64,000 nucleotides of DNA, from positions 42,416-106,415 of the forward strand of contig JBBCGY010000001.1 of assembly GCA_037200005.1 (NCBI GenBank). Direction: 5' to 3'. Below are positions 1 to 27,187 of the stretch, in pieces (the stretch's first letter is position 1; every line of letters starts with the position of its first letter). Source of the DNA: Alphaproteobacteria bacterium. Its GTDB lineage: Bacteria > Pseudomonadota > Alphaproteobacteria > UBA9219 > RFNS01. The notes under the pieces were generated by a model that was given only the letters and a program-made list of their open reading frames with translations, was not told where the DNA came from and did not search any database. The position numbers were made by a program, and so were the translations under genes.

Positions 1-7
1 TCACTTA

Positions 8-41
8 ACCGCGCACCGGCCTCCGATGCGCGGTTTTTCTA
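8..41 (+). terminator. Rho-independent terminator-like hairpin (stem accgcgca/tgcgcggt followed by TTTTTCT)
   Basis: GC-rich inverted repeat at 9-35 followed directly by a T-run. It probably terminates a gene upstream of the window. Confidence 0.45.
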
Positions 42-59
42 TGCCGACTGATCGCCAAT

Positions 60-545
60 TTACGTTTTGAATGGATTATCGAAAACGAGACCGACCTTGC
101 CTGAGAGCGGCCAAATACCATGCTCAGAACCGAATCCTAATTCGAGGGAGAGTTCGCGCAAGGATTTAAAGATTAGAGAAAAGATGCTCCATATCTTACA
201 TGCGATAGAGACGACGTATTCTTTGACCCGCTCGATGAATTCGATAAGCGCATCTCTGGTTCGTCGTGCATAAGTTCTAAGAGAGGCCAACACGCTAGAG
301 GCCAAAGATTTTACATGCAGGAGAAATCGCTCGGCATGCCCTTTGGTCAATTCAACTCCTCTCGCTATTCTATCTGGCATGATGTCGCAATATTCTAGAA
401 AAGCAGAAAAAAGTTCACCTTCTTCCTTTGGAAATTCTCTAGTCGCATCGGTATCTTTGGCGATCCTTATGTCCTGTTTTAGACTCACGAGGATGGCATT
501 GACGGCTGCATCGTCAGCTTTTTCAGATAGTTCTAGAATAAGCAT
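60..545 (-). CDS. hypothetical protein (161 aa), low-GC
   Basis: Longest ORF across this AT-rich stretch. The C-terminal third is hydrophobic and no recognisable motif is present. Confidence 0.4.
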   Translation of the reverse strand: MLILELSEKADDAAVNAILVSLKQDIRIAKDTDATREFPKEEGELFSAFLEYCDIMPDRIARGVELTKGHAERFLLHVKSLASSVLASLRTYARRTRDALIEFIERVKEYVVSIACKIWSIFSLIFKSLRELSLELGFGSEHGIWPLSGKVGLVFDNPFKT

Positions 546-745
546 GGGCTTGATCCTCCCCTATAGATTGCAAAGACTAAATTAAACACATCCATTCCTT
601 AGAATCCAAGCTTCTTCATACCGAACAACTGAAACATACACCGTTATGTGTCTGACCGATAAACCGTCAGCTACTGCTGCGCAGCATTTAAACGCACCCA
701 TCTCTTCAAAACAATTTCCCCCTCACCTCATAGAAAGGAAAGCAT

Positions 746-1006
746 ATGAAAACATCCATGTCCGAAATCATTGATCTTACCCTCACGCAAGCTATTGAGC
801 GTTACATGGAGATGGAGCCGGAGGCGGTTCACGATGCCATTGTCGCCGAATGGCCGGAACAACTGGCCGTCATTCTGGTGGAGTTCTTTTTCAAAACCAC
901 ATGCGGCAATTGCGACGGCTTGCCGGATTTTATCCAAATCCCAAGAGAGCAGAGCGACATTTATTACATCGTCCCGCTATGCGGCTGCGAATGGGGCGGC
1001 GAATAG
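746..1006 (+). CDS. small Cys-containing hypothetical protein (86 aa)
   Basis: Good RBS (GAAAGGAA) 8 nt upstream of the ATG. C-terminal CxxC...CxC cluster (CGNCDG...LCGCEW) suggests a zinc ribbon. Confidence 0.5.
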   Translation: MKTSMSEIIDLTLTQAIERYMEMEPEAVHDAIVAEWPEQLAVILVEFFFKTTCGNCDGLPDFIQIPREQSDIYYIVPLCGCEWGGE

Positions 1007-1091
1007 CGTCTTAACCATACTGAGGGCGTGCGCACGACTTCGCCAAAGATTTTAAGCCCCGATTATTCCAACCATAGAAAGGAACCCTATT

Positions 1092-1772
1092 ATGAAAGCC
1101 GGAAACACCCATACCACGCGCGAAAGCTGGCTGCGGTCGGCGACGAATGAATTACGCCCGTATTTCAGCAAGCTCGGCTACGAATTGCCGGAGAAGATTC
1201 GTTTTGCCATCGCGTTCACATCAACCGGCAAGCGCGGACACATGGCCGGAGAATGCTGGCATCCGGCGTCATCGGCAGACGGGCATTATGAAATCATCAT
1301 CCGCGCGGATATTGCCGATCCCGCAGAAGTCCTTGGCATTCTTGTGCACGAACTTGTGCATACGTTGTTGCCGCCCGAAGTGAAACACGGGAAAGAATTC
1401 AGAGCCATTGCGCTGCGCATCGGCCTTGAAGGCAAAATGCGCGAAACAACGCCCACGCCGATCTTGGCGGAGCGTTTAAACGCTATCGCCATCAATCTCG
1501 GCGCATTGCCTCACGCCAAACTTAATTTTTCCGAGAACGCCGATGCTCCCAAAAAACAAAAAACCCGCTGGCTGAAAGCTGAATGCGGCGCGGCTTGCGG
1601 TTATAGCGTTCAAATCACCGCTAAATGGGCGCGCGCCGGGCTTCCCATTTGTCCAATCGATACCGATCATGGCGCATTGATTTGCAATTTGCCGGATGAT
1701 GGCAAGGACGAAGAAATAACCATGGACAACAAATCGGACATGCAAACAAGCAAAGCAATTTTGCGTTCCTAA
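1092..1772 (+). CDS. SprT-like zinc metallopeptidase domain protein (226 aa)
   Basis: HExxH motif (ILVHELVHTLL) in a SprT-like context, plus a C-terminal Cys cluster (CGAACGY...CPID...HGALIC). Same CATAGAAAGGAA RBS context as the preceding ORF. Such proteins are typical of plasmid/ICE cargo. Confidence 0.55.
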   Translation: MKAGNTHTTRESWLRSATNELRPYFSKLGYELPEKIRFAIAFTSTGKRGHMAGECWHPASSADGHYEIIIRADIADPAEVLGILVHELVHTLLPPEVKHGKEFRAIALRIGLEGKMRETTPTPILAERLNAIAINLGALPHAKLNFSENADAPKKQKTRWLKAECGAACGYSVQITAKWARAGLPICPIDTDHGALICNLPDDGKDEEITMDNKSDMQTSKAILRS

Positions 1773-1825
1773 ATAACCGACATTGAGAAATTGATTTCGT
1801 CGCAGGCTCCGCAAGGTGTGGGTCG

Positions 1826-1872
1826 TGTGACGTTGTCACACGCCACCCCCTCTGTGTGACGCGTCACACAGA
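1826..1872. promoter_or_regulatory. two adjacent palindromes sharing a TGTGAC..GTCACA core (candidate operator pair)
   Basis: gtgtgacGTTgtcacac (7-bp arms) and ctgtgtgacGCgtcacacag (perfect 20-bp palindrome), 12 bp apart, between the SprT-like gene and hsdM. Confidence 0.4.
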
Positions 1873-2221
1873 GATAGCAGGGGCTTCGCCCCATGCACCC
1901 CCATATTCATTTCAGCGAGGATATTCACATGACTATTTCGCAAAAATCACGGTTATCAACCAAGTCCTTTCTCAGCATCCGCGAGAGAAAGACGGAATGC
2001 AGTATCATTCCGTCAATATTGAGTCTCCAGTGTTGCCGACGCCGATCAATGCCGCGCTATTCCAGGACAAGGAGGATGACAGCAAGTTCAACCTCATATG
2101 GAACAGGCCGGAGCAGCAGGGACTCAAGGCCGAAGCCACCCTAAGCGTCGCGGGTCAGCCCCAATCCCGCCGCTTCTCCGGCCCGCGCGCAACGCCGTAG
2201 GTAGTAACGGAGAGGACGACA

Positions 2222-2251
2222 TCCCCGCAGGACGCTCGTCCTGCGGGGATT
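2222..2251 (+). terminator. perfect 14-bp-stem hairpin (atccccgcaggacg/cgtcctgcggggat), terminator- or operator-like
   Basis: Perfect inverted repeat about 80 bp upstream of the hsdM start, with no clear T-tract after it. Confidence 0.35.
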
Positions 2252-2331
2252 AATCGGAAAATATCGAACGAATGCCCTATGGCGCAATCCAGAGGCCGCC
2301 ATTATAATGCGCGGAAACTAAGGGATAGCAT

Positions 2332-3892
2332 ATGGCGCAAGCGAAAAAGGCAAAGAAACAGGGCGGCAATGGGGCTAATTTGGGGTTTGAAGCCCAGATG
2401 TTCCAAGCCGCCGACAAAATGCGCGGCAGCATGGATGCCAGCGAATATAAGCATGTCGCCCTGGGACTGATTTTCTTGAAATATATCTCCGACGCTTTTG
2501 AAGCCAGACATGCGACTGTCAAAGCGGACGGCGAGGACCCGGAAGACCGCGATTTTTATATCGCGGAAAATGTCTTCTGGGTTCCCAAAGAGGCCCGATG
2601 GAACCATCTACAAGCGAATGCCAAGCAACCGACCATCGGTAAATTGATTGATAATGCCATGCTGGCGATTGAGTCGGCGAATGCCTCTTTGAAGGGGGTT
2701 TTGCCAAAGGATTATGCCCGCCCAGCCCCTCAACAAACAAATGCTTGGCGAGCTGATCGACCTTATCAGCGGCATCGGGATGCATGAGGGCGCAGGCAAG
2801 AGCAAAGATATTCTTGGGCGCGTTTACGAATATTTCCTCGGTGGCTTTGCCGGAGCCGAAGGCAAGCGCGGCGGTGAATTTTATACGCCGCGTTCCGTAG
2901 TCATGCTGCTGGTTGAAATGCTGGAGCCTTATAAAGGCCGCATCTATGACCCTTGCTGCGGTTCGGGCGGCATGTTCGTTCAATCGGAGAAATTCGTGCT
3001 GGCGCATGGCGGGCGCATCGGCGACATCGCCATCTATGGCCAGGAAATGAATAACACCACATGGCGCTTGGCCAAAATGAATATGGCGGTGCGCGGCATT
3101 GACACGGATATTCGCTGGAACAATGAAGGCAGCTTCCATAAAGATGAATTCAAAGACTTGAAGGCCGATTATATCCTCGCCAATCCACCGTTCAACGTAT
3201 CGGATTGGGGAGCGGATCGCCTGCGCGAAGATGTGCGGTGGAAATACGGCTTGCCGCCTGCTGGCAATGCCAACTACGGCTGGCTACAGCATATCATCCA
3301 CCATTTAGCGCCGAATGGCGTTGCCGGCGTTGTGCTGGCCAATGGCAGCATGTCTTCCAATCAGTCCGGTGAAGGCGAAATCCGCAAGGCTATGATTGAA
3401 AAGGATTTGGTCGATTGCATGGTGGCCTTGCCAGGGCAGCTATTCTATTCAACCCAGATTCCGGCCTGCCTGTGGTTCTTGGCGCGGAACAAAAAAACAT
3501 CGCATCCGCGCAATCGCAGCGGCGAAGTCTTGTTCATTGATGCCCGGAAAATGGGTGTCATGATTGACCGCACCCGCCGTGAGTTAACGGAAGATGACGT
3601 TAAGAAGATCGGCGCTCTCTATCATGCCTGGCGCGGTGAAAAAGACGCCGGGAAATATGCCGACATTCCTGGTCTTTGCAAGGCGGCAAAGTTGGATGAA
3701 GTCTCCGGTCATGGCTTTGTCCTCACCCCTGGCCGCTATGTCGGCAGCGAAGCGGTGGAAGATGACGATGAACCGTTTGAGGTGAAATTTCCCCGACTGG
3801 TTGTTGAGTTGGAAAACCAGTTTGAAGAAAGCGATAAACTCACTGCCCAAATTCGGCGGAATCTGACTTTGTTGGGAGGGTCGCAAAAATGA
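2332..3892 (+). pseudogene. hsdM: Type I restriction-modification methyltransferase subunit HsdM, interrupted by a frameshift near 2725-2740
   Basis: The HsdM N-terminal domain is in one frame (2332-2787). The AdoMet-MTase core ([15 protein letters not shown]) continues in another frame (2714-3892). The junction reads ...LPKDYARPA / [15 protein letters not shown] within a C-rich run. Confidence 0.8.
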
Positions 3893-4380
3893 CGCTCAAC
3901 CACAAATACATCAAACAGATATTGATTTCCTTGCGGGACAATCCAGCTCCCAGCATGGACAGTTATGATCTGGCAAAAATTTGTGGCGTTGATATGAACC
4001 ATATTGATGAATTGGCGTTTGGTAAGTTTGTGACCCAACTGCGCCTGCTAAAGGATATGGCATGCATAGACTGTCCCGTGGACAATCTCGGCTTTAGCCA
4101 GAACATCAATCGCCACTGGATAATTTGTCGCACCACCTATCGGCTCTCCAGCCAGGGGCACAGTTTTCTGGACACAGAAAACAAAAATACCCTGTTCAAT
4201 AAGGGAAAGGCGTTCTTCTTTTCAGCCTTTACGGAAGCTGGAAAGCGTTTTCTGATTCAGGCAATAACGGCAATTTTTATTGTTGTGCTGGCTACCGTTG
4301 CCGCAAACGCTGGTCTTTTCAAAATTTCGAGTTCGCATGGCCTAGCTAATCTCAAAAATCCAAAAGAGCGAGGGCTATGA
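3889..4380 (+). CDS. hypothetical membrane-anchored protein (163 aa) embedded between hsdM and hsdS
   Basis: Overlaps ATGA with the hsdM stop and again with the hsdS start. It has a soluble, possibly winged-helix-like N-terminal ~100 aa and one C-terminal TM helix ([20 protein letters not shown]). GC is low. Confidence 0.55.
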
Positions 4381-5696
4381 TGTCTCTTTCGGAATGGCAA
4401 ATATTATCATTTAAAGAAGCTGGTGTTCAGTTGATTGATTGCGATCACAAAACACCCCCGGCATCTTCTTATGGGTATCCATATGTTACGATCCCTCAAA
4501 TCAAAAATGGGCGCATAGATGTGTCTGAAGCAAGGCGGATTACCGCAGAACATTTCAAAGAGTGGACAAGGAAGGCCAATCCAAAGCCCTTTGACGTTGT
4601 CTTATCTCGTAGATGCAACCCAGGAGAAACTGCCCATGTCCCTGCGGGGCTAGAGTTCGCTCTTGGACAAAATCTCGTTTTGTTGCGTGCAAATGGTGAA
4701 AAGGTATTTCCGCGATATTTACGATGGCTTACGCGGGGAGTGTTATGGTGGGAACAGATATCAAAGTTTATTAATGTGGGCGCCGTTTTCGATAGTTTGA
4801 GATGTGCGGACGTTCCAAATTTTCAATTTCCAATACCAGCACTGCATGAACAAAAAGCAATTGCTTCAATATTGACCGCACTGGACGATAAGATCGAACT
4901 GAACCGCCGGATGAATGCGAACCTGGAGGCGATGGCGCGGGCGGTGTTCAAAAGTTGGTTTGTCGATTTCGACCCCGTCCGCGCCAAAATGGCAGGCCGC
5001 CAACCCTTCGGTATGAGCGCGGCTACCGCTGCCTTGTTCCCCTCGCGCCTCGCCCCCTCCGAACTCGGCGATATTCCGGAGGGGTGGTCGGTCGATCAAA
5101 TCGGGAACGCGGTCACCGCCGTTGGCGGCAGCACCCCCAGCACCGAAAATCTAGAATATTGGACTGATGGGCAGTATGCCTGGGTAACGCCAAAAGACCT
5201 CTCTGCACTGAAATCGCCTGTTTTGTTCACAACGGAACGCAGGATAACAGATGCAGGAATCCGTGTTATCAGTTCCGGACTTCTGCCGTCGGGTACTGTT
5301 TTGATGTCTTCCCGTGCGCCAATCGGCTATATCGCAATCGCCGAAACGTCCGTTGCCATCAATCAAGGCTTCATAGCCATCGTTTGTGACAAAGAGCTTC
5401 CCAATTTATACGTCTGGCAATGGCTGCACGCCAATCTTGACATGATCAAAAGCCATGCAAACGGCTCAACCTTTCAGGAAATCAGCAAAGGCAGTTTCCG
5501 GCCTCTCCCCTGCATCATTCCATCAGCAAAGGTTCTCGAAAAATTTCAGGCAATCGTTTTGCCTATCTGGCAAAAACTCGTTGCGAATGAAAAAGAGTGT
5601 CTGGGGCTAGAAAAAACGCGCGACTACCTTCTTCCCAAACTAATCTCCGGCGACATCCGCATCCGCGACGCCGAGAAATTTATGGAGGCTGCATAA
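4377..5696 (+). CDS. hsdS: Type I restriction-modification specificity subunit HsdS (two target-recognition domains)
   Basis: Two low-GC variable domains flank a conserved high-GC central repeat (LDDKIELNRRMNANLEAMARAVFKSWFVDFDP). A similar C-terminal conserved helix follows (LPKLISGDIRI). Confidence 0.9.
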   Translation: MMSLSEWQILSFKEAGVQLIDCDHKTPPASSYGYPYVTIPQIKNGRIDVSEARRITAEHFKEWTRKANPKPFDVVLSRRCNPGETAHVPAGLEFALGQNLVLLRANGEKVFPRYLRWLTRGVLWWEQISKFINVGAVFDSLRCADVPNFQFPIPALHEQKAIASILTALDDKIELNRRMNANLEAMARAVFKSWFVDFDPVRAKMAGRQPFGMSAATAALFPSRLAPSELGDIPEGWSVDQIGNAVTAVGGSTPSTENLEYWTDGQYAWVTPKDLSALKSPVLFTTERRITDAGIRVISSGLLPSGTVLMSSRAPIGYIAIAETSVAINQGFIAIVCDKELPNLYVWQWLHANLDMIKSHANGSTFQEISKGSFRPLPCIIPSAKVLEKFQAIVLPIWQKLVANEKECLGLEKTRDYLLPKLISGDIRIRDAEKFMEAA

Positions 5697-7150
5697 TGAA
5701 TCGCTGGGTAAATTCGTTCCAGAACCATCCTTTCCAAAAGCCATGGAAAGATATTGTGGAGCTTTCAGAAAAGATTGCTCTTCAAGATGAGACTGTCGCA
5801 ACTGACGTCCAAGAGCTTGCGCGTCTAAAAAAGGTTATAACCTATGTTGGCCAGTTAATAGGTGCAGCTGATCCGGAATTGATTCCATTAAGCATATGGA
5901 GTTCTTTTCAGGACCAGGCCACGCAGTGTGCAGATCAAATCAATCAGTACAACAGCAATAAGAACATTACTCACCTCAGCAACGCTAATAGCAATCTAGA
6001 TAATTTATTGACATATGTTCGCCCTTATGTGGTTTCTGCAGAGGGGGCGGCTCAGGCGGCAATGTCTGCGTTCATAGTGTATTCCGACACCATCAATACA
6101 CAGACCGATCTGATACAATCAAAAACCCAAGCCTCTGTTAACGGTACGCAGGCGAACAAAGAAAAGTCTGATGAAATATACAAAGAAATAGAGCAGTCAA
6201 AGCACAACATTCAACAATTGGAACAAAAATTTTTGATCGGCGATAGCAATGAGAAGAGCCTCCAGGAAAGAATGCAGATTCTTCTTGGGGAAGCCCAGGA
6301 GTGGAATAAAATAATTGGTGAGTTTCACAAACGGCTGACAAGCGGCAATGAACAAGAAAGCGCAATTTCGCTACAAATCGAAGAAGCAAAAAATAAAGCT
6401 ACTAAGGATAAGGAGGCTATAGAAAGTGCCCTTCAATTATCTGAAAATTTAATCAAAGACCTCAAAGAGTTTTATGAGCGAGTTTTTGGCAAAGAAGGCA
6501 GTGACGGAAACGTCATGGTCGGTCTAAAGCAAGAATTGGATAACCGCATTAAAGAGCTTGATAATTTTAAAATTAATCAAGGAACAGCCTACAATACCTT
6601 ATTTCAAAAAATTGAATCTCTACTGCCCGGAGCAACAAGCACTGGTCTTGCCAGTGCGTATAGAGAATTAAGAGACTCTTTTGCTGCGCCCATCAATATC
6701 TATACGCTAGTGTTTTGCTTCACCCTAGCAGTGATGTTTTTTGTTGGCTTGTGGGGTGTTGACTTCGGTGATGATGTGGGATTGAACAAGATGCTCGGCA
6801 GTCTCTATCACAAACTCCCACTTTTACTGCCCATCCTGTGGCTGGCAATTTTTGCTTCCAGACGAAGAAGCGAAAGTCAAAGGTTGCAACAAGAATATGC
6901 CCATAAAGAGGCGCTCGCAAAATCATTTCAAAGCTTCAAAAAACAAATTGATGCATTGCAGGAGAAGGACGAGGTCCTTACCAAGAAACTCCTGGATGCT
7001 ATGATCGGTGCCGTGTCCCATAATGCATCACAAACACTGGATGGAAAACATGGAGATAAAATTCCAACGCAAGAACTTCTAGAGGGAGTTATCAAGAAAT
7101 TTCCTGCGCAAAGCTTTTTTGAAAAATTAGTCGATAAAATCCTTAAATAG
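5696..7150 (+). CDS. coiled-coil protein with two C-proximal TM helices (485 aa), unknown function, embedded in the RM operon
   Basis: The ATG overlaps the hsdS stop (TAATG). Long heptad-like K/E/Q-rich segments are followed by two hydrophobic helices (IYTLVFCFTLAVMFFVGLWGV; LPLLLPILWLAIFA) and a ~100-aa tail. GC is very low (~40%). Confidence 0.6.
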   Translation: MNRWVNSFQNHPFQKPWKDIVELSEKIALQDETVATDVQELARLKKVITYVGQLIGAADPELIPLSIWSSFQDQATQCADQINQYNSNKNITHLSNANSNLDNLLTYVRPYVVSAEGAAQAAMSAFIVYSDTINTQTDLIQSKTQASVNGTQANKEKSDEIYKEIEQSKHNIQQLEQKFLIGDSNEKSLQERMQILLGEAQEWNKIIGEFHKRLTSGNEQESAISLQIEEAKNKATKDKEAIESALQLSENLIKDLKEFYERVFGKEGSDGNVMVGLKQELDNRIKELDNFKINQGTAYNTLFQKIESLLPGATSTGLASAYRELRDSFAAPINIYTLVFCFTLAVMFFVGLWGVDFGDDVGLNKMLGSLYHKLPLLLPILWLAIFASRRRSESQRLQQEYAHKEALAKSFQSFKKQIDALQEKDEVLTKKLLDAMIGAVSHNASQTLDGKHGDKIPTQELLEGVIKKFPAQSFFEKLVDKILK

Positions 7151-7233
7151 GGAACAATGTGAATGGTCTGTTAGGGGCAAAAAACTCGTCACATCCAACT
7201 TATCAAGTACGTTCCTCGGAAAGAGCTACTCAC

Positions 7234-8319
7234 ATGACCTTTGACCGCAACACACCCTACAACGATCTTCCGCTTTTGCCACCGGCGCAGATCGACCTGG
7301 AAACAAAGCCTATTCTCAAAAAGGCGATCACGGCGAATATCGCGCTTGCCAAGCTGTTCGACGCGGGAAAGTTGATTCCCAATCAGGCGCTTCTGGTTCA
7401 GGCGATTGGGTTGCAGGAAGCCAAGCTGTCCAGTGAAATCGAGAATATCGTCACGACCAATGACGATCTTTACCGCGCTTTCGCGGATGAGGGCGTGCAT
7501 TCCAGCCCCGCAGCCAAAGAGGTTCTGTTTTACAAGGACGCGCTCTGGAAAGGCTATAACGCGATCAAACTGGAAAAGCGCCCGCTCTCCACGCGCCTTT
7601 TTGAAGATACGTTCCGCATTATCAAGCAATCCTCTGACGGCATCCGGCGTTTGCCGGGCACGAAATTATCGAACCCGGCAGGCGAGATTATCTACACGCC
7701 GCCCGAAGGCGAAAATCTTTTGCGTGACAAGCTCTCCAATCTCGAAAAATTTCTTTACGCCGAAGACGGGCTTGATCCTTTGATCAAAATGGCCGTCATG
7801 CACTATCAATTCGAGGCTATTCATCCCTTCACCGACGGCAATGGGCGCACGGGGCGCATTCTCAATCTTTTATATTTGATCGAGTGCGGGTTGCTGGAGA
7901 TTCCGGTTTTGTATCTATCCCGCTACATCATCGAACACAAAACGGATTATTATCTGGGACTGCGCGGCGTAACCGAGGGGCAAAATTGGGAATCGTGGAT
8001 TCTCTATATTCTCGATGCGATTGAAGTGACGGCGCAGATGACCAGAGATCGGATTCTTCGCATTCATTCTTTAATGGACAAGACGGCGGAGGCGGTCAAA
8101 GCCCAGGCTCCCAAAATCTATTCCAAAGACCTTATTGAGGTGATTTTCCGCCAACCCTACTGTAAAATTCGCTTTTTGGAGGAGGCAGGGATTGCCCAAA
8201 GGCAGACCGCCTCCACTTATCTCTCCAAATTAGAGGCTTTGGGTATTTTGGAGTCCGTAAAGGCTGGACGCGAGAAATATTATATTAATCCGGCATTCTT
8301 TAACCTTTTGGCAGAATGA
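7234..8319 (+). CDS. Fic family protein (class II with SxxxEN inhibitory helix motif), C-terminal winged HTH
   Basis: Fic active-site motif HPFTDGNGRTGR. The N-terminal helix carries SSEIEN, matching the (S/T)xxxE(G/N) auto-inhibition motif. The typical start is M-x-FDRNTPY..LPxLPP. Confidence 0.85.
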   Translation: MTFDRNTPYNDLPLLPPAQIDLETKPILKKAITANIALAKLFDAGKLIPNQALLVQAIGLQEAKLSSEIENIVTTNDDLYRAFADEGVHSSPAAKEVLFYKDALWKGYNAIKLEKRPLSTRLFEDTFRIIKQSSDGIRRLPGTKLSNPAGEIIYTPPEGENLLRDKLSNLEKFLYAEDGLDPLIKMAVMHYQFEAIHPFTDGNGRTGRILNLLYLIECGLLEIPVLYLSRYIIEHKTDYYLGLRGVTEGQNWESWILYILDAIEVTAQMTRDRILRIHSLMDKTAEAVKAQAPKIYSKDLIEVIFRQPYCKIRFLEEAGIAQRQTASTYLSKLEALGILESVKAGREKYYINPAFFNLLAE

Positions 8320-8503
8320 CATGGTTATTTTCTGCATGTTTATGAAGTGCTTAGGTGATATGTTGTTTTGATCGACACATCGTTCCAACATGTCGAAAAA
8401 ATCAGAAAATTTCGACATGTTGAGGCTTGTGCCCTTGTTGGTTCTAAAATGCGCTTAACCGAGGCCAAACAGGCAACGGCATCGCAGTCCAAAGAGAAAA
8501 TCG

Positions 8504-11500
8504 ATGGTCGCTGACATTCAATACACCCAGCCGGAACCGAATTATGACGGATTCCGCGAAGCGCATGTTGAAGAAGCAACTTTCGATTGGCTCTCTGGGC
8601 TTGGCTGGACACTCGCGCATGGGCCGGATTTGGCACCGGAAGGCAAAGCCCCGGAGCGGGCCAGTTATGGCGACGTGCTGTTGTTGGGGCGGTTGAGGAC
8701 AGCCTTGGCCGCGATCAACCCGCAACTCCCCGCCGATGCGATTGACGACGTGGTGCGTAAGATTATCGCAGTCGAAATGCCGTCTTTGGTCGAAGAAAAC
8801 CGGCGCTTGCATAAACTGATGGTCGATGGCGTGGCTGTGCAATACATGCAGGCCGACGGCACGATCAAAAACGACATCGCGTGGCTGATCGACTGGGAAA
8901 ACAAAAAGAACGATTGGCTGGCCGTCAATCAATTCACGGTCATCGAAGAACGCAACAATCGCCGCCCCGACGTGGTGATGTTTATCAACGGTTTGCCCCT
9001 TGCCGTTATTGAATTGAAGAACGCGGGAGACGAAAACGCGACAATCGAAGGCGCGTTCCGCCAGACGCAAGCTTACAAGCAATTGATCCCTTCTCTGTTT
9101 CGCACGAACGGCATACTGATTATTTCCGACGGACTGAAAGCCCGCATCGGCAGCCTGACCGCAGATTATGAGCGTTTCATGCCATGGCGCACGGTGGATG
9201 GGGCCGGTGTCGCGGCCAAAGGAACGCCCGAATTACACACAATGATTCACGGCGTTTTTGAGCAAGGGCGTTTTCTGGAGTTATTGCGCCGGTTCACCGT
9301 GTTTCAAAGCAACGGCAAAGATATTTTCAAAATCGTAGCAGGATATCACCAGTTCCACGCCGTAAAGCTCGCCGTTGCCAGCACCATCGACGCAACGGCC
9401 AGTGAAGGAAATCGCAAAGTCGGCGTCATCTGGCATACGCAAGGATCGGGCAAAAGCCTGTTGATGGCATTTTATGCGGGCAGCGTGATTGCCAATCCTG
9501 CGATGGCCAATCCGACTCTGGTTGTGCTGACCGACCGGAATGATCTGGACGACCAGCTTTTTTAACACTTTCAGCCTATCTCGTGATCTTATCCGCCAGA
9601 CGCCCGCGCAAGCGGGAGATCGCGATGAATTGCGGAAGCTTCTGGCGGTATCATCTGGCGGCGTTATCTTTACGACCATTCAAAAATTTCTGCCCGCTGA
9701 TAGTGAAAAAACTTTCCCGCTGTTGACTGACCGCAAGAATGTCATCGTCATCGCCGATGAAGCGCACCGCAGCCAATATGGCTTCAAGGCCAAGTTGGAT
9801 AAAAAGTCGGGCGAATTAGCTTATGGTTTTGCGAAACACCTGCGCGATGCGCTGCCGAATGCGTCCTTCATTGGCTTTACAGGAACGCCTATTGAGAAAG
9901 CAGATGTCAATACGCCCGCCGTATTCGGCGATTATATTGATGTCTATGATATTCAACGCGCGGTCGAAGACGGCGCGACGGTGCCAATCTATTACGAAAG
10001 CCGCCTAGCCAAACTCCAGCTTGACGAAGAGGAAGTCAAAAATCTTGATGCTGAGGTCGAAGAACTGACCGAAGACGAAGAATCCAGCGAGCGCGAGCGT
10101 AAGAAAAGCAAATGGTCGCGCGTTGAAGCCCTGTGGGAGCCGAAACACGCTTGGCTCAAGTAGCCGCCGATATTGTTCAGCATTTTGAGAACCGTATCAG
10201 CGCCTTAGACGGCAAAGGCATGACCGTATGCATGAGTCGCCGTATTTGCGTGGCGCTCTATAACGAGATTATTAAATTACGGCCCGCATGGCATTCAGAC
10301 GATGACGCGCAAGGCGCTATCAAGATTGTGATGACGGGCAATATCGCCAACGATCCGCCTGAATGGTTGAAACATACGGGCAGCAAGGCGCGCCGTGATT
10401 TCCTGGCAAAGCGGGCGCGCGACGCTAAAGACCCGCTAAAACTTGTTATCGTTCGTGATATGTGGCTTACGGGCTTTGATGCGCCCTGCATGCACACGAT
10501 GTATGTCGATAAGCCGATGCATGGTCATGGCTTGATGCAGGCCATTGCCCGTGTAAATCGCGTATTCCGCGACAAGCCAGGCGGCTTGATCGTTGATTAT
10601 ATCGGGATTGCCCATAATCTGAAACAAGCTCTCTCTATTTATTCCCCCGGCGACCGCGAAGAAGTCGGCATTGACGAGCAGCAAGCCGTCGCAGAGATGA
10701 TGCGCCGCTATGAAATCGTCCGGGATATGTTTTATGGATTCGATTATATGCGCGCGCTGCACGGCACACCGGCTGAACGCTTAGTGCTGATGGCCGAGGC
10801 TCTGGAGTGGATTCTCGATTTGCAGCAACGTGAAGCTGCAAAAGAACAGACCGAACAAGCCAGGAAAGAGGTGCGCCGCAAATTCTCAGACGCCGTTGTT
10901 GGCTTATCGCGCGCCTATGCGCTGGCCGCAACCTCGCCAGAAGCGGGGAAAATTCGTGATGAAGTCGGTTTCTTCCAGGCTATTCGTGCAGCCCTGGCAA
11001 AAAATGAGCCGGGCAAAGGTAGCACACAGGCGGAAATCGATGTGGCCGTCCAACAAATGGTCAGTCGTGCCGTGGTGTCAACGGAGATTGTCGATATTCT
11101 GGCGGCGGCAGGCATTAGAACCCCGGATATATCCATCCTCTCAGATGAATTTCTGGCAGAAATTCAAGGCATGAAGAAGCGTAACCTTGCATTGGAAGCC
11201 TTACAGAAACTCATCAATGGAGAAATAAAATCCCGCATCAAATCGAACGTGGTGCAATCTAAGAAATTCAGCGAACGACTGGAAGCCGCCGTCCGGCGCT
11301 ATCATAACAACGCTATAACTGCCGCGCAGCTTTTGGAGGAGCTGATTGCCATCGCAAAGGATATTAAAGCTGACCGCGAACGAGGAGAAGAACAAGGACT
11401 TAGCGAAGAGGAAATCGCTTTTTATGATGCTCTGGCTGAAAATGAAAGCGCATTGCAGTTGTTGGGCGATGAGAAATTACGAGTGATTGCTACTGAACTG

Positions 11501-11680
11501 GTTGTCTCCGTTCGCAATAATGTGTCTGTTGACTGGATGCACCGCGATAGCGCCCGCGCCAAGTTGCGCATCGAAGTCAAAAAGATTCTCAAGAAATATG
11601 GCTATCCGCCAGATTTACAGGATGCAGCGGTGCAACTGGTGTTGCAGCAGGCCGAAGTTTTGGCCCCACTCTGGGCATAA
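8504..11680 (+). pseudogene. hsdR: Type I restriction endonuclease subunit HsdR, split into three ORFs by two frameshifts (~9560 and ~10140)
   Basis: Three successive overlapping ORFs (8504-9565, 9540-10163, 10133-11680) together cover a ~1058-aa HsdR: N-terminal nuclease region, DEAD-box helicase motifs ([12 protein letters not shown]) and C-terminal domain. The first shift is in a T7 homopolymer (DQLFF|NTFS). Confidence 0.85.
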
Positions 11681-11772
11681 CAATCGCTGACGGCGATCTT
11701 TGGAATTCTATGTAAGAGGCTGCAACAGGTAAGGCCAGATTATGACCGAGAGGAACGAAGATTCTTAAACAA

Positions 11773-12903
11773 TCAAAGCGCCAGCCGGGGCCGGATTAGC
11801 GACAAAGGCCGGGCAGTGGAAAGCTGGAGGCCAACAGCTTCGTTTGGAACATTGGAAAAATCGGTAATAAGCGGCAGCATGGCGTTAGGGCCAAGGGCGC
11901 GTGGTGAGGCACCTAGTTCTTTAAGAGCGGAAACAATTTCCGGTTCATTTAGCGCATGAATGCGCATAAGGGGTTGCGTAGTGTCAGGAATCCATTTCCT
12001 GCGCGAGACTTCATCGCGGCCCGTCGAGATAAGTGCCGCGACCACGTCCTTGAGTTTGTCGCCTTTCGGCAGATTGCCGTTGCTGGTGATTTGAGCGCGG
12101 ACAATCGGCTCGCCCAGGAAGGTCGAAATGGCTTCCGTAAAACTGGCGGCGATTTTCTGATTGCCGTCCTCACTTTGCCAATTCGCCAGGAACACATTTG
12201 GCAAGCTGGAGTCTTTGCCGGGTTTCGCGGCGAAGTCCGCGAGCTGGATTGCAACTCGTGAGCGGCCCGTTTCAATGGGCGCATCGCCGATAAATTCCAG
12301 AACGGCGCTATCGTCCGGCGCTCCCATCGTCGCACCGAGTTTCTTGAAGATGCCGGTCATGGCCGCATTGCCGCCCGCATATTCGCCGACGCGGCCGCGC
12401 GAGACGAGGCCATAGGGCGAATAGCCTTGTTCGCGGCTGACGGATCGCCGGATTTTCTCGTAGATAAAATGCGAGCCAAGTCCAATGCCATTCGGGTATT
12501 CCGCGCTTTTTGTGCGATTACGGAATTCCTGGGATAGTTCCGGCGACACATAGGTATCTTCGCCATAGATAGCAGGATAATGGCGGAAATCCCGGCCATT
12601 GCGTTCCGTGAGAACGGTCGGAAACTCGATTGAGCCACCGGCGAGTTTGGGGCTGCAATTTTCCCACTCCACGATGGCGAAATAAGCCTGAATTTTATTT
12701 TTCTTGATGGCCTCGATAACTTTGCCGAATTTGGCGTTATCAGCGGACGCTCCATGCGTCACGGCTTCACTTTCGACGATTCTATAAAGAATCTCATCAA
12801 GCGCCATATGATGAACGACGTCCGTACCGTTCATGCGCACGATGCTGGCTTTGGCGTTTCCCGGCAGCAGACCGGGCATATTATCGAGCGCAACGGAAGA
12901 CAT
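11773..12903 (-). CDS. uncharacterized conserved protein (376 aa), paralogue of 24000-25298
   Basis: Shares HYPAIYGEDT, YPNG(I/L)GLG, GxVSxGRVxEYxG and KxGAT motifs with the 24000-25298 ORF. It overlaps the upstream XRE regulator gene by 4 bp, so the two are co-transcribed. Confidence 0.6.
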   Translation of the reverse strand: MSSVALDNMPGLLPGNAKASIVRMNGTDVVHHMALDEILYRIVESEAVTHGASADNAKFGKVIEAIKKNKIQAYFAIVEWENCSPKLAGGSIEFPTVLTERNGRDFRHYPAIYGEDTYVSPELSQEFRNRTKSAEYPNGIGLGSHFIYEKIRRSVSREQGYSPYGLVSRGRVGEYAGGNAAMTGIFKKLGATMGAPDDSAVLEFIGDAPIETGRSRVAIQLADFAAKPGKDSSLPNVFLANWQSEDGNQKIAASFTEAISTFLGEPIVRAQITSNGNLPKGDKLKDVVAALISTGRDEVSRRKWIPDTTQPLMRIHALNEPEIVSALKELGASPRALGPNAMLPLITDFSNVPNEAVGLQLSTARPLSLIRPRLAL

Positions 12904-12905
12904 GA

Positions 12906-13556
12906 TTATATTTTCCCCTTGTCGTCGGGGATCGAAGCATTTTCCCAGAATGATTCAAATTGCTCGACATATCTTTCGGCCAAGGGCTTGGAGTGTATCG
13001 AAACGACTTCGACATTATGATCGCTGCGATGCACCGCCTGGGCGATATAGTCATTATAGACGTAATAGGGAATGAGGATTTTCGTCGTCTTATCCAGCCA
13101 GCGATATTCGCAATAGCTGGCGGAGAAATTATAGTCGCCATCCAGGATAAGAACGCGGGCGTCAAGATTCGGAAGCTTGCTCATTCTTTCCATATGCTCG
13201 GTCGCATAATCTTGCGCATAGGAAAGGGTCTTGCCGTCGCTGGAATTAAACTGGCGAATGCGTCCACCGTCTTTCAGCGTTTCGTATATATGATCGAGGA
13301 ATTGTCGGTATCCGGCTTTGCCCGAAAAAACCCTGACTTGGTTTCTCCGCATCCGAACGCCCTCGTCATCCAGGAATTCGACGCCGTGCCGGTCGAAAGC
13401 ATTGGTTATGCTGGCGATGGTCTTCTCATGCGGTTGTACCGTATCGGCCTCGATTTTGCTCACGGTCACGCGGGTAAGCCCGGCCTCCCTAGCCAAGTCT
13501 TCCGCTTTCCATTCCAGTAAGCTGCGCGCTGCGCGAATTTGACGCCCGGTAATCAT
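12906..13556 (-). CDS. XRE-family HTH transcriptional regulator with ~150-aa C-terminal domain
   Basis: N-terminal HTH_XRE (IRAARSLLEWKAEDLAREAGLTRVTVSKIE). It is the first gene of a two-gene minus-strand operon. Confidence 0.7.
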   Translation of the reverse strand: MITGRQIRAARSLLEWKAEDLAREAGLTRVTVSKIEADTVQPHEKTIASITNAFDRHGVEFLDDEGVRMRRNQVRVFSGKAGYRQFLDHIYETLKDGGRIRQFNSSDGKTLSYAQDYATEHMERMSKLPNLDARVLILDGDYNFSASYCEYRWLDKTTKILIPYYVYNDYIAQAVHRSDHNVEVVSIHSKPLAERYVEQFESFWENASIPDDKGKI

Positions 13557-13827
13557 AAAGTTAGCACTAGCATATGGTTTAGTTAAAAATAGATAACAAT
13601 CGAGATAACTAAAATTGGCAATAACATATTAATATTTGTAAAAACATGCCCTGTCAATTCAGAAACATTAGTTTCATGTAAAATTTACTGATACCATAAG
13701 TATATTCTTCTTGATTCCCAGTCGGCTTTGCATTTATGTTCCCAAATATTGGTAATGCCTAATGGTTGAAATTAGCTCGATTAAGCCATTTAAAGCGATT
13801 TTCAAGGGGAATTTCAGATGACCAATT
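13557..13827. promoter_or_regulatory. AT-rich (~30% GC) divergent promoter region between the XRE operon and the rhs regulatory cassette
   Basis: A 270-bp non-coding stretch with strongly depressed GC, flanked by divergently transcribed operons. GAAGGGGA lies ahead of the first small ORF. Confidence 0.5.
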
Positions 13828-13991
13828 CATTTAACGCTTATGTCATGCGCCAGGGCGAACCGGCCATTACCGCCATCATCGAAAATTGGGAAAGGCTTGT
13901 CGGCTTGCGGGCCGAGGCCGAAACGCCGCTTGAGCAGCGCTGGGCGGCGATGATGCATGGTTATGAGCCACAGGCAATGGCAGTCGCATGA
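13828..13991 (+). CDS. small ORF (54 aa), first of four translationally coupled genes
   Basis: Not in the ORF track because it is under 60 aa. RBS AAGGGGA. Its stop overlaps the next start as ATGA. Confidence 0.35.
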
Positions 13992-14278
13992 GCCGGAAAG
14001 CCGAAAAACCTTTCAGCCCGGTTGACGAGATGCAGCTTTCTCAGCCGATGGGCAATCGAACCGCCGAACATTTCCGCGATGCCCTGGATGATTTGGAGCA
14101 TGAGGCGACCGCGCAGGACGCAAAAATAAAGCAATTGCGCCAAGCTATTCTGCAACGCGCACAAGAACTCGACACTACCGTTTGCCAATCCTGGCTGGAT
14201 TCAGAAATCGAAAAAGCGGACCACCTCGCGTTGGAAGCGCGGCTGGAAAAACTCATCAAGTTCCTATCGGAAAAATGA
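13988..14278 (+). CDS. small hypothetical protein (96 aa), helical/charged
   Basis: ATGA-coupled to both neighbours. Confidence 0.5.
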   Translation: MSRKAEKPFSPVDEMQLSQPMGNRTAEHFRDALDDLEHEATAQDAKIKQLRQAILQRAQELDTTVCQSWLDSEIEKADHLALEARLEKLIKFLSEK

Positions 14279-14820: not shown

Positions 14821-17800
14821 ATGGTGGCACCTGCGAAGAAATTTCACGAAGCGAACGGCGAACTCACCAATGAGGCAGGGGCAACGCGACCGCCGCTCTC
14901 GAGGAACAGCCTCTGGCGGACACTGCGCCCCGGGATCTCGGTGGGAGTAAGCCTCGCGGCAGTCGTCGCTTGCGAAAGCGGCGAACCCAACGCTTCAAAT
15001 GACAACATCGTTTCGATTTCCCAAGCGATAGGCTCTGCGACAATCTATAGCTTGCCTACCAATGTTTTGATGCCCAATGCCATCAATAATCAAAATCTCA
15101 TTGTGGGCCAGGGTCTGCCTTCGATCTATGATGCCAACACGGGAACATTTAGTAGCCTTGAAGTAAACCAGCCTTCGGGGGCGGTCACTTCCTATGCAAT
15201 TAGCAATGCCGGTCACGTTGTCGGCAATTCATTCAATGTTGGGCCGGTTTCCAATTCGGCGTTCATTTCACAGGGCGGACATTTGTCCGATCTATACGCC
15301 GGCAACAACAACGGGGTGACCAGCGTCGCTTACGGCGTCAACAATTATGGCCAAGTCGTCGGCACGATGCCGGTGACGGTCAACGATGCGAACAATAGTC
15401 CACATCCTTTCACGCATGCGTTCTCGTGGCAGGGCAGCGTTACAGACCTTACACCGAACTACTATGGAAATTCAGCCGCCTATGGCATCAACGATGCTGG
15501 GCAGATCGTGGGAACGATAGGAACTGCGGGGGTCAAGTGGCAGGGCGGATCGTCAAGCACGCTGCCGAGCGGCACCAGCACGCCCGCCATGATCAACAAT
15601 GTCGGTCAGATCGTCGGGACATATAGTTCAGGCGGTTCGTCGCACGCTTTCCTTGTGCAGAGCGGCACCCTGACCGATCTCGGAGCCATACAGGGAAGCA
15701 CACCTGTGAGGATCAACAACAAAGGACAAGTTACGGGCGGCTTCTACAACACGGGTGCCGGACAATATTACCCGAGCGTCTGGCAGAATGGCGTCGTGGT
15801 TACGATTCCCACTCTGTCGGGCATTCCCGCAGGCTGGTCTATCACGTCGATAAACGGCATCAATGACAGCGGAACCGTCGTAGGGCAAGGCACGCTTTCG
15901 GGTTCTTCACGGGGTTTTTACCTAACTTCGCCGCAGCTTCTGAACTACGCCATTGCCGGAAAGCCCTACGATCCGAAAGCGAATGGTGGTGAGGATTCGG
16001 CGTCAACCCCGACAGACGATCTATGTGGAACTCATGGCATGTGTGTGCCCAACGCGCAATTGCTGTCGGCCAGCTTGAATTTGAACGATACGCCGATTGG
16101 GTATCAGCCGCCCAAAGGGCCACCAGCCTATATCCGGCTTACATATAATCATCGTGACAGTGTCGCGCCCAGCAGCACTTCCTCGCATGTTGGGCCAAAC
16201 TGGACTCTGAATGTCATTTCTTACATTCAGGATGATCCGGCCAGCCCGGGCCAGAGCGTCACGCGCAACGTGGCGGGCGGCGGTATCGTCGACTACACTT
16301 TTGAGGCAGGGCAGTTCAATACCACCACGGGTGCATTCGGGCCGGAGAAGCAAACCGGGGCGATCTTGAAACGGACTCCCGCGACAGGGTTCAGCGCCAG
16401 TGCTTCCTATGAGCTTTCCTTTCCCGATGGGGCCAAGCAAATATTCTCCTACCCGGATGGAAGCTTCAATTATCCGCGCCGCGCATTCCTGACGGATATC
16501 GTTGATGCCTCAGGCCAGGGCCTGCATTTTGGCTACAATTATCTTCAAGGAACTTTCGGCGCGATCAATTGCACGCCGGGATGTCCGCAACTGCAATCAG
16601 TTTCTGATGCTAATTTCCGTGCAACAAACTTCGTCTACGGTGACGCATCTAATGTCTTGCGCGTGACGCGGATTAATGACCCGTTCGGGCGTCACGCCGA
16701 TTTAGCTTATGATGGCAGCGGACGGCTTTCGTCAATCACGGATGTGATCGGCATTCAATCGTCTTTCACCTATGACACCACCGACCCTACTTTCATCAAA
16801 AAGCTAACGACACCCTATGGCGATAGCAATTTCGTCTTTGGGCAAGATACGGCGACGGATCGTCGTTGGCTCACACTCTCCGATGCCGTGGGCAATACGG
16901 AAAAAGTGGAATACCGGGGCAGCAGCGCCAGCGGCATAGCGGCGTGCGACAAAAACACGAGCGATGCGTCGTGCAGTGTCTCGACCTCCGTGCCGACAGG
17001 CATGCCTAACGGCATCAATAACGCCGATCTCGACAAGCGCAACACCTTTGTCTGGAACAAATGGATGTATGCGAATGGCTATGGCAGCGATTACACGCAG
17101 GCGAATGTTACCCATTGGCTCAAGGACGGTGCGGGCAATCCCGTGGGGATTCCGGAAAGCGTCAAGCCGCTGTACGAATCCCGCATTTGGTATAATTATC
17201 CCGGCCAGAACGATCCTAGCACCCCAGGAACCCTGTCTGTGCCGAGGGCGACGGGCCGCGTGATCACCGATCCGCTTTACGGGCAAGCGCCGCAGAATCA
17301 GGTTTACCAAAGTCAATATAACAGCCTCGGCAAGCCCACCTTGACCGTCGATCCCTACAAGGTTTCAGGCAACAACAATGAAGGCCGAACTACACGCATG
17401 ACCTATGATGCCTCCGGCGTCGATCTTTTGACGGTGGAACAGAAAACCGGCAGCGGAACGCCGGGGACATGGGCGACGATTGCTTCCTACGTCTATACCG
17501 ATCCGACAGAACAGCCCACATCGATCCACAAACCGATCCGCTATACCGACGCGGCGGGGCAAACTTATAAATTCAAATACAATGGCGACGGCCAATTGAT
17601 CTATGCCGCCAATCCCTACAACGATACGACGTATAATGAATATCATCCGTCCGGCAAGCTCCTGCGGACGACCATGCCTGTGCCGAGCGTAAACTGGAAT
17701 ACCATCGATTATGGAACCGATATTAACGGCGCGCCGACGGGGGCGAGCAACAGCAGCGCCCTAAGGGACACCGCCATTACCTACGACTCCGCCGATCGTC

Positions 17801-25584: not shown

Positions 25585-25776
25585 ATGAGCCAGGAAGCAT
25601 ATCGCGTGAAAGAATTCTGCAACCGCTACGCCATTTCAAAAGCCAGCTTCTACCGGGAAACAGCGGCGAAGCGGCTGCATATCCTAAAACGTGGCCGTAC
25701 AACGCTCGTTGCCCGCACCGAAGCCGAACGCTGGTTTGAAAGCCTTGGCCAAGGCCAGCCGCAGCAATCAGCCTGA
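25585..25776 (+). CDS. AlpA/Xis-like phage-type transcriptional regulator (63 aa)
   Basis: RBS AAGGGAGGAAG. AlpA-like HTH (FCNRYAISKASFYRETAAKRLHILKRGRTTLVARTEAERW). Immediately upstream of the integrase. Confidence 0.7.
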   Translation: MSQEAYRVKEFCNRYAISKASFYRETAAKRLHILKRGRTTLVARTEAERWFESLGQGQPQQSA

Positions 25777-25843
25777 TCGCATTCAATATCCCGAATATTT
25801 CCAAAGCCATTTTTCGTCAATCTTATTCTCATGGAGGCATGTC

Positions 25844-27031
25844 ATGCGCCATACGGGACATATTCGCCAGCGTTCAGAAGGGAGTTTCGAGCTTCGCTAT
25901 AGCATCGGCACCGATCCGGTCACGGGAAAATGGAAAGTCAAAACCGTCACCGTTAAGGGAACGCGCAAAGCTGCCGAGAAAGAATTGCGCCGCATACTCG
26001 ATGCAATCGATGACAATGATTATGTCGAACCCAATAAAATCACTACCCGTGATTTTTTGACACAATGGCTTGAAACAATGCGTTCCCAGATAACCCCCAA
26101 ATCCTATGAAAGCTACGCTGAAATAGTCGATAACTTCCTTATCCCAACTCTTGGCGGTCATATTCTGGCGAAACTTGCTCCGGCTGTTATCCAAAAAGCC
26201 TACAATGGATGGGAAGCTGGTGGCCGCAGGGATAAAAAGGCGGGCGGGCTGGCGGCGCGTTCCCGTCTCTATATCCACCGCATCCTTAAATCGGCACTCA
26301 AACATGCCGTGCAAATACAGCTAATCGCCCGCAATCCCGCCGACGCGGTTAAAGCGCCGCGCGTCAAGAAAGCCGCCATAACTACATTGACCGTGGATCA
26401 ATCGGCGGCGCTGCTCGATGCCCTGTCCGGCAAGCCGCTTTATTGGCCTGTGTTGCTTGCCCTAACAACGGGCATGCGCCGGGGTGAAATTCTGGCGCTT
26501 CGCTGGAAGAATATCGACTTTGAAAAGAAAACTGTTCGCGTCGTCGAAAGTCTAGAGCAAACCAACACAGGCATTCGCTTCAAGGCTCCGAAAACGGAAC
26601 GGAGTCGTGCCGTCATGTTGCCGGATTATGCCGTTGAAGAACTGCGGAGACTGAAAAAAGAACAGGAGAAAAAATTGTCGGAATCAGGAATCGGCCAAAC
26701 CACTGAAACGCTGGTTTGCGGTCGCTATGACGGCGAACCGCTATGGCCTACCTCACTTACGCATGAATTCGTGAAGGCCATGAAGAAACTGCCGAAACTG
26801 CCGCGCGCCAGATTCCATGATTTGCGCCATTCCCATGCCACGCAACTCCTGACAGCAGGAATCCATCCCAAAATCGCGCAAGAACGGCTGGGACATACCA
26901 CGATTACGACAACCCTAGACCTCTATTCCCATGCGACGGACACCATGCAAGACGAGGCTGCATCAAAGCTCGACAATGCCTTCCGTTCTGCTATAAAGGC
27001 CCGTTCCGACCAAGCGCCACGACTAGGATAA
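25844..27031 (+). CDS. tyrosine-type site-specific recombinase/integrase (phage integrase family)
   Basis: Catalytic region RFHDLRHSHATQLLTAGIHPKIAQERLGHTTITTTLDLYSH (R...HxxR...Y). The most likely start is MRHTGHIRQRSEG rather than the extended ORF from 25691. Confidence 0.9.
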   Translation: MRHTGHIRQRSEGSFELRYSIGTDPVTGKWKVKTVTVKGTRKAAEKELRRILDAIDDNDYVEPNKITTRDFLTQWLETMRSQITPKSYESYAEIVDNFLIPTLGGHILAKLAPAVIQKAYNGWEAGGRRDKKAGGLAARSRLYIHRILKSALKHAVQIQLIARNPADAVKAPRVKKAAITTLTVDQSAALLDALSGKPLYWPVLLALTTGMRRGEILALRWKNIDFEKKTVRVVESLEQTNTGIRFKAPKTERSRAVMLPDYAVEELRRLKKEQEKKLSESGIGQTTETLVCGRYDGEPLWPTSLTHEFVKAMKKLPKLPRARFHDLRHSHATQLLTAGIHPKIAQERLGHTTITTTLDLYSHATDTMQDEAASKLDNAFRSAIKARSDQAPRLG

Positions 27032-27111: not shown

Positions 27112-27187
27112 GACCTTGTAGCTCAGCCGGTAGAGCATCTGACTTTTAATCAGGGGGTCGCGGGTTCGAACCCCGCCGAGGTCACCA
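27112..27187 (+). tRNA. tRNA-Lys (anticodon UUU) with encoded CCA
   Basis: Cloverleaf: acceptor gaccttg/cgaggtc; D-arm gctc-agccggta-gagc; anticodon arm tctga-cTTTTaa-tcagg; T-arm gcggg-ttcgaac-cccgc; discriminator a; CCA. Confidence 0.9.

Follow-up and report, generated by a model that had tools for sequence, protein, structure and literature searches.

Gene X at the hsdM–hsdS junction

The protein examined here, for which we use the working name X (NCBI tag WDO70_00275), comprises 163 amino acids (aa) and is encoded between hsdM and hsdS of a Type I restriction-modification operon in a metagenome-assembled alphaproteobacterium. The gene lies in a stretch of 64,000 nucleotides (nt) from assembly GCA_037200005.1 (positions 42,416–106,415 of the 1.83-Mb contig JBBCGY010000001.1), and this whole stretch is hereafter called the window. 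The features of the gene and its product are as follows, with pLDDT denoting the predicted local distance difference test score of the structural model.

3874–3880, forward strand: Shine–Dalgarno-like GGGAGGG, its GGAGG 9 nt 5′ of the X ATG (read directly from the sequence)
3889–4380, forward strand: coding sequence of X, a divergent DUF2513 member (163 aa, ATG start)
3889–4188, forward strand: residues 1–100, modelled winged helix-turn-helix (HTH) domain (helices 5–17, 25–31, and 41–56, three-stranded wing 69–86, helix 88–98)
4195–4248, forward strand: residues 103–120, start of the conserved family C-terminal helix (TxFNKxKxFxxSxxxEAGK), from alignments and hhalign columns 101–131; low-confidence helix in the model
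4249–4323, forward strand: residues 121–145, uncharged hydrophobic span, a predicted single transmembrane anchor (Kyte–Doolittle)
4324–4377, forward strand: residues 146–163, short polar, positively charged C-terminal tail (from the sequence; pLDDT <50)

The ATG of X (nt. 3889–3891) overlaps the TGA stop codon of hsdM (nt. 3890–3892) in an ATGA arrangement, which confirms the open reading frame (ORF), its length, and the upstream overlap given in a preliminary description of this DNA. At the other end, two possible hsdS starts overlap the X stop codon (TGA, nt. 4378–4380). The first, an ATG at nt. 4377, would create a second ATGA overlap, as had also been described; the other, an ATG at nt. 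4380, leaves an overlap of only 1 nt (TGATG), is better spaced from a GAGGG at nt. 4370–4374, and is chosen by the gene calls in both public assemblies, so that the described ATGA holds for the first start alone. Whichever start applies, X and hsdS are tightly coupled as judged from these codons. Further downstream, the hsdS stop codon overlaps by one base (TAATG) the start of the gene for p485, which is the 485-aa protein of the preliminary description (484/485 aa). Given these successive stop/start overlaps, hsdM, X, hsdS, and p485 make up a predicted translationally coupled chain, in which the overlapping codons show the translation of X to be tied to that of both hsdM and hsdS; the coupling proposed earlier is thus borne out on both sides.

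The gene shows a ratio of non-synonymous to synonymous substitution rates (dN/dS) of 0.095 against its homologue in the L001 locus (65–69% aa identity, with synonymous sites near saturation), and HMMER, run exhaustively against 1.8 billion cluster representatives, returned 32 representative homologues at E ≤ 1e-3. From this evidence, X is judged a real gene under strong purifying selection. A profile search recovered 77 relatives of X in all, while no paralogue was found within the window, and no Rfam family was matched on either strand of nt. 1–14,000. The GC content of X (0.451) had been noted as low, like that of other cargo genes, and this holds: it compares with 0.414 in the p485 gene, 0.52–0.54 in hsdM, 0.51–0.54 in hsdR, and 0.569 across the whole window. 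The low-GC block extends from X into the first target-recognition domain of hsdS.

Family, fold, and hydrophobic span of X

While X itself scores below the Pfam gathering cut-off for DUF2513 (PF10711; 19.7 bits against 29.6, E = 1.1e-3, aa 3–109), we assign it to this family because its relatives match PF10711 (95 of the 100 that were aligned) and because an hhalign comparison of the X clade with PF10711-positive relatives gave a probability of 100% (E = 1.7e-42) over 129 columns, the C-terminal helix included. In addition, phmmer started from X alone reaches P0030, named a DUF2513 protein by NCBI, and X matches phrog_585 in PHROGs (function unknown; E = 4.4e-9). By sequence comparison, X is a divergent member of the uncharacterised DUF2513 family, which is present across phyla and whose proteins (~125–140 aa) consist of a conserved core with a conserved C-terminal helix. 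The homology covers the whole 130-residue family core including this helix; X differs in being ~30 residues longer, in carrying a hydrophobic span, and in its pI of 6.9 (isoelectric point) against a family median of 5.1.

NCBIfam gave no match for X, Pfam gave no PadR or MarR match at E ≤ 0.01 (a PadR chain in the PDB reached only E = 0.58), and no HTH_3 or Xre match was seen. A sequence search of the PDB with the family profile returned nothing significant (best E 0.5 or worse), and no paper mentioning DUF2513 or PF10711 was found in the literature library searched. Using tblastn, no relative was found in phage records, and plasmids gave one weak match, to an Aeromonas plasmid. A scan for close relatives gave none in the GTDB representative genomes (185,579 species) and, in the JGI metagenomes, one already-known contig. 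We set aside P0032 (239 aa), an apparent fusion that looks like a partial or chimeric call, and dropped a metal site at the CxxC-like motif of X (CIDC), the cysteines of which are not conserved in the family.

The structural model was computed with AlphaFold2 on a 100-sequence alignment, the single-sequence prediction having given an unusable model (pLDDT 46). Most of residues 1–100 exceed a pLDDT of 90 and comprise four helices, with a three-stranded wing between the third and the fourth, followed by a long, lower-confidence helix at residues 103–140. With its three-helix core and ensuing β-hairpin wing, the model shows residues 1–100 folding as a MarR/PadR-like winged helix. The best structural matches of the domain are MarR and PadR repressors, some of them solved on operator DNA, while a viral fold library matched only generic winged helices. 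Across the family, the wing carries a conserved motif (YRLT-x-x-G-x-x-FL), and the link between helices H2 and H3 is long and variable in length in both the alignment and the model. The domain is acidic in the family at large (median pI 5.1, net charge ~−5, with a pI >7.5 in only 2 of 100 members), and near neutral in X (pI 6.9).

Behind this domain, the Kyte–Doolittle (KD) 19-residue mean reaches 2.52 at residues 121–139, within an uncharged stretch (residues 121–145) that is the sole span of the protein and is followed by an 18-residue tail. The N-terminus is folded and polar, so X has the layout of a tail-anchored protein, its one span lying close to the C-terminus and its N-terminus lacking a signal sequence. 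The preliminary description had seen in X a small helical, possibly winged-helix domain of ~100 aa followed by a single transmembrane anchor, and both parts of that picture agree with the model and the hydropathy profile. Among the 100 aligned relatives, however, a 19-residue mean above KD 1.6 is found in only four (the window protein, P0003, P0002/L001, and P0005); the remainder end in a moderately hydrophobic amphipathic helix (median KD 0.83). In the hhalign comparison, the hydrophobic span prolongs the conserved family helix (consensus TxFNKIKxFAxSxAxExGKxLL), and from these alignments the 25-residue span is a peculiarity of the clade, a lengthened form of the family's C-terminal helix.

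Loci holding DUF2513 relatives

We recovered ~24 distinct loci with X or its relatives, the window included, of which nine (again including the window) are Type I loci. In these, the relative lies directly 5′ of hsdS wherever the neighbour is identifiable, and the two genes overlap by 4–11 nt where the gene call fixes the hsdS start. Two layouts occur. The first, M-X-S, is that of the window, L001, L009, and L010. In L009, a 44%-identical relative comes after an hsdM that shares 79% identity with that of the window, and this relative overlaps each of its neighbours through ATGA (the downstream fragment of 56 aa is unverified as hsdS, and the locus is counted among the nine). L001 and L010 carry the relative and then hsdS. 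Related hsd loci thus hold relatives in the same slot, and the alternative raised in the preliminary description, that X is a random insertion, fails.

The second layout, hsdR-(cargo)-X-hsdS-(cargo)-hsdM, is seen in five loci (L006/L023, L016, L021, L022, and L033) from cyanobacteria-related (Gastranaerophilales) and other gut lineages, the hsdM of which is only 23% identical to that of the window. Four of these five (L016, at nt. 5196–8601, L021, L022, and L033) carry further cargo: ahead of the X relative, an antitoxin-like gene (HTH plus SocA/Panacea) with a partner of 126 aa, and, between hsdS and hsdM, a ~200-aa protein without a Pfam match.

Restriction genes of other types also adjoin the family. 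In four genomes, the relative starts 10–14 nt 3′ of a MmeI-type enzyme. This adjacency is a second conserved restriction linkage of DUF2513 relatives; the loci are of Gastranaerophilales type (L025, L026, L027, and L029, with the relative at nt. ~7001 or 4588), and their enzymes (918–944 aa) are 74–85% identical between genomes. One further, Type III-like locus has the order SNF2, Bro-N, X relative, N6_N4 methylase, unknown gene, and ResIII.

Half of the distinct loci contain no restriction genes at all, and comprise a prophage, plasmids, and housekeeping neighbours. The prophage relative (P0069; L042–L046, at nt. 6001–6384 of L042, and on >50 contigs) is solitary and sits on the opposite strand between an endolysin gene (Amidase_2) and the large terminase subunit gene, a location typical of an accessory 'moron' gene. 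P0003, the closest full-length relative, is encoded on a plasmid-like element together with replication protein A (RPA), ParA, and an integrase, and follows a 311-aa gene unrelated to p485. On the Aeromonas veronii plasmid pAV1812-1 (L037, nt. 2534–3405; 5.9 kb, mobilisable), the DUF2513 gene overlaps the stop codon of a RelE/ParE toxin gene; this toxin gene itself comes after a TraY-domain gene, which hints at a three-gene cassette. Other relatives adjoin serine recombinases, a reverse transcriptase, a HATPase_c_3 protein, or a KAP NTPase, and one lies between cysS-like and leuA-like genes. Judged by these neighbourhoods, the DUF2513 family belongs among the genes of mobile elements and defence, strikingly favours the position before hsdS, and can also exist alone.

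The host operon and possible roles of X

The remaining genes of the operon are as follows.

2332–3892, forward strand: hsdM, in two frames owing to one extra C in the C-run at 2726–2729 (Pfam HsdM_N and N6_Mtase in two ORFs)
4380–5696, forward strand: hsdS, start at ATG 4380 (alternative ATG 4377; Pfam Methylase_S; gene calls on L035 and L036)
5696–7150, forward strand: p485, independent cargo, a 484-aa coiled-coil membrane protein (TAATG overlap with the hsdS stop)
7159–8319, forward strand: SoFic-type Fic protein, independent cargo (Pfam Fic_N, Fic, and SoFic-like_C; PADLOC SoFic, E = 2.7e-115)
8504–11680, forward strand: hsdR, in three frames in the window via two single-base indels (missing from the second assembly)

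The hsd locus stands on an island of lower GC content (~0.50 against 0.62) which ends at a tyrosine integrase (nt. 25691–27031) adjoining a tRNA-Lys gene (nt. 27112–27187). In this copy, hsdM is split into a 151-aa HsdM_N ORF and a 392-aa N6_Mtase ORF, and the removal of one C restores a 519-aa HsdM collinear with that of L040. Both the NCBI assembly and the Logan assembly made separately from run SRR28211700 contain this frameshift, which may genuinely inactivate the restriction system. The two hsdR indels, an extra T within a T-run at nt. 9558 and a missing T at nt. 10132, are different in this respect: neither is present in the Logan contig L036, which matches the window at all other positions across 13.4 kb and has an intact hsdR for a protein of 1058 aa. 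Assembly errors, or else minor variants, are the probable source of both indels, and the intact copy rules out hsdR as a dead gene in three fragments.

The distribution of the two genes downstream of hsdS bears directly on the standing of X. The p485 family has at least 947 homologues and no Pfam domain; p485 itself has a hydrophobic span at residues ~330–358 and a weaker one at 373–386. In L040/L041, a homologous operon has the order hsdM (58% identity), hsdS, p485 (50% identity), Fic/RhuM, and hsdR (46–58% identical to that of the window), with hsdM and hsdS overlapping directly and X absent; X is thus not present in all operons of the family, as a core subunit would be. A p485 homologue also occurs alone in a Vibrio genome (L039) and in an integrase/ArdA island (L038). 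Conversely, p485 and Fic stand beside a relative of X in none of the ~23 other distinct loci, the sole Fic-like match near a relative being 5 kb away (L017). Relatives without p485 and Fic, together with p485 and Fic without X, mark X and the p485-Fic pair as separate, independently mobile inserts in one operon backbone. At the level of gene content, these loci show X to be independent of p485 and Fic and dispensable for this type of operon, and the p485-Fic pair may form an embedded module of its own.

We consider it somewhat better than an even bet that X is an optional, autonomous accessory winged-helix cargo gene, placed at the hsdM/hsdS junction of a Type I operon on a tRNA-Lys-integrated island. 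Its autonomy follows from the relatives that are solitary in a prophage, on plasmids, and in islands, and its dispensability and independence from the X-less operon of L040/L041. Under this reading, X would be made in step with HsdS without being a subunit of the restriction enzyme. Its lengthened C-terminal helix would anchor the protein by its tail in the inner membrane, leaving the winged helix on the cytoplasmic side, and may mediate self-association, as in small one-domain PadR proteins. The domain would bind a nucleic-acid or protein ligand, and X would act alone in conflicts between the host and mobile elements, as a second-line defence or through local regulation.

Several points weigh against this reading. 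X itself stays under the Pfam gathering score (19.7 against 29.6 bits), no model in PADLOC-DB v2 matches it at E ≤ 0.1, and we found no experiment on, and no solved structure of, any DUF2513 protein. The acidity of the family's winged helix weakens the nucleic-acid-binding version in particular, and the hydrophobic stretch might serve as a buried helix for oligomerisation in place of crossing the membrane. Given that the hsdM frameshift is seen in both assemblies, the operon may also be decaying in its host organism. Finally, the fixed slot before hsdS, the overlapping codons, and the recurrence of both in two unrelated layouts go beyond an arbitrary place in a defence locus, and may point to a functional link with the specificity subunit.

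This last point leads to a reading that we regard as unlikely, in which X is a dedicated accessory component of the restriction enzyme that attaches to the core formed by HsdS and HsdM, or to the specificity module in MmeI-type or Type III enzymes, with the anchored variants keeping the complex by the inner membrane, the point of entry of foreign DNA. EcoKI is reported to associate with the membrane. The position directly 5′ of hsdS with overlapping codons argues for such a role, being shared by the nine Type I loci, which span two layouts and two hsdM families of only 23% identity, and so do the relatives found directly after MmeI-type enzymes and before the Type III-like methylase. However, half of the distinct loci lack restriction genes, the homologous operon keeps its architecture without X, and just 4 of the 100 relatives have a membrane span. 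Extended to the whole family, the same idea would give restriction-modification systems of the Type I, MmeI-type, and Type III-like kinds a fourth component, optional and so far unrecognised, in the DUF2513 proteins. These would be tied by translational coupling to the specificity module, and their anchored variants would station the complex at the inner membrane, at the entry point of phage or plasmid DNA, or otherwise modulate its activity; we hold this broader form to be more doubtful still.

It is likewise improbable that X controls transcription of the hsd operon by binding DNA, in the manner of Type II C proteins or RptR but with a winged helix, and so sets when or how strongly hsdS and hsdR are expressed. 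The structural matches to MarR and PadR repressors, some of them on operator DNA, and the conserved wing motif fit such a role, and RptR shows that small regulators tied to restriction genes exist (PMC12255303). Two perfect palindromes also lie upstream of hsdM, either of which could be an operator by its sequence: a 24-nt palindrome (CTCTGTGTGACGCGTCACACAGAG) at nt. 1850–1873, and, at nt. 2221–2250, perfect 14-nt arms (ATCCCCGCAGGACG and CGTCCTGCGGGGAT) with a 2-nt spacer. The latter hairpin, though, comes just after the stop codon of a DUF736 gene and may be a terminator; in a scan for promoters and terminators, shuffled sequence did as well as the real one, and a conserved operator was not found. 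The protein itself fits poorly as well. While its modelled fold is that of small PadR and MarR repressors, X lacks sequence-level membership in either family and departs from them in its long, variable H2-H3 loop (unusual for a classical HTH), in the acidic surface typical of its family, in its position in the middle of the operon and not at a promoter, and in a membrane anchor that would be odd for an operator-binding repressor. Both the family's acidity and the long, variable H2-H3 link speak against a repressor of the routine kind.

Type II C proteins and RptR resemble X in being small helix-based proteins genetically linked to restriction genes (PMC12255303). Type II C proteins, however, have an Xre-type HTH and are encoded just before the endonuclease gene, with a C-box operator, while X has a winged helix, gave no HTH_3 or Xre match, and precedes hsdS, not hsdR; X does not qualify as a C protein. 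RptR is a 79-aa protein encoded at an island promoter, the DNA-recognition helix of which (α4) was likened by its authors to bZIP factors (PMC12255303), whereas X, at 163 aa, combines a winged helix with a membrane span and is encoded inside the operon.

The preliminary description had proposed X as a membrane sensor or anti-sigma-like partner of p485 and Fic. X, p485, and Fic share one operon as low-GC cargo, and two of them are predicted membrane proteins; yet co-occurrence is absent in either direction, with neither p485 nor Fic beside the relatives in the ~23 other loci, and with p485 found next to Fic without X in L040/L041 as well as alone. No sigma-factor gene was found among the flanking ORFs scanned, and the gene upstream of P0003 is unrelated to p485. 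The locus contexts thus largely refute this partnership, which we consider very improbable. That X hitch-hikes without a function, or is an ORF falling into decay along with its restriction locus, as the frameshift of hsdM in both assemblies and the absence of X from the homologous operon might suggest, is scarcely credible in view of a dN/dS of ~0.1, an intact frame with a good ribosome-binding site, and conservation of the family across phyla.

An extra gene in a Type I operon is not categorically new. Embedded genes of this kind have been described and are frequent according to a 'guilt-by-embedding' survey (bioRxiv 10.1101/2024.01.29.577857), so that the earlier statement that a gene wedged between the M and S genes is atypical was overstated. 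Known nested genes include PrrC, TgvAB (PMC11411939), and DarTG2 with RptR (PMC12255303). Like PrrC, TgvAB, DarTG2, and the 'PDC' candidates of PADLOC, X is an extra gene nested among the core hsd genes and co-transcribed with them. However, the known embedded genes encode enzymatic or toxin domains and lie mostly between hsdS and hsdR, whereas X has no catalytic domain, lies before hsdS, and has no PADLOC model. DUF2513 was not found in one part of the supplements of the survey (bioRxiv 10.1101/2024.01.29.577857). What appears to be undescribed is the DUF2513 slot before hsdS across distant systems, together with its membrane-anchored variant.

A parallel outside restriction operons is offered by Ltp of phage TP-J34, a membrane-tethered HTH-like superinfection-exclusion protein. 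Like X, which has a solitary prophage relative, Ltp is a small mobile-element protein that joins HTH-type domains to a membrane tether. It is, however, secreted as a lipoprotein whose domains lie outside the cell, while X lacks a signal peptide and its domain should stay cytoplasmic; the likeness is one of description only.

Extra genes nested in restriction operons have repeatedly proved to hold new defence or regulatory functions, and DUF2513 keeps one specific place, directly before hsdS, across distant bacteria and two layouts. This makes a small winged-helix protein linked to the restriction specificity module a testable hypothesis, and the rare membrane-anchored variant eases localisation experiments. 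Even if X were only hitch-hiking, a three-gene 'sensor plus effector' module is removed from consideration. Other cargo of the island includes a 1793-aa Rhs-repeat protein (nt. 14821–20202), a second Rhs fragment, and Sel1-repeat proteins.

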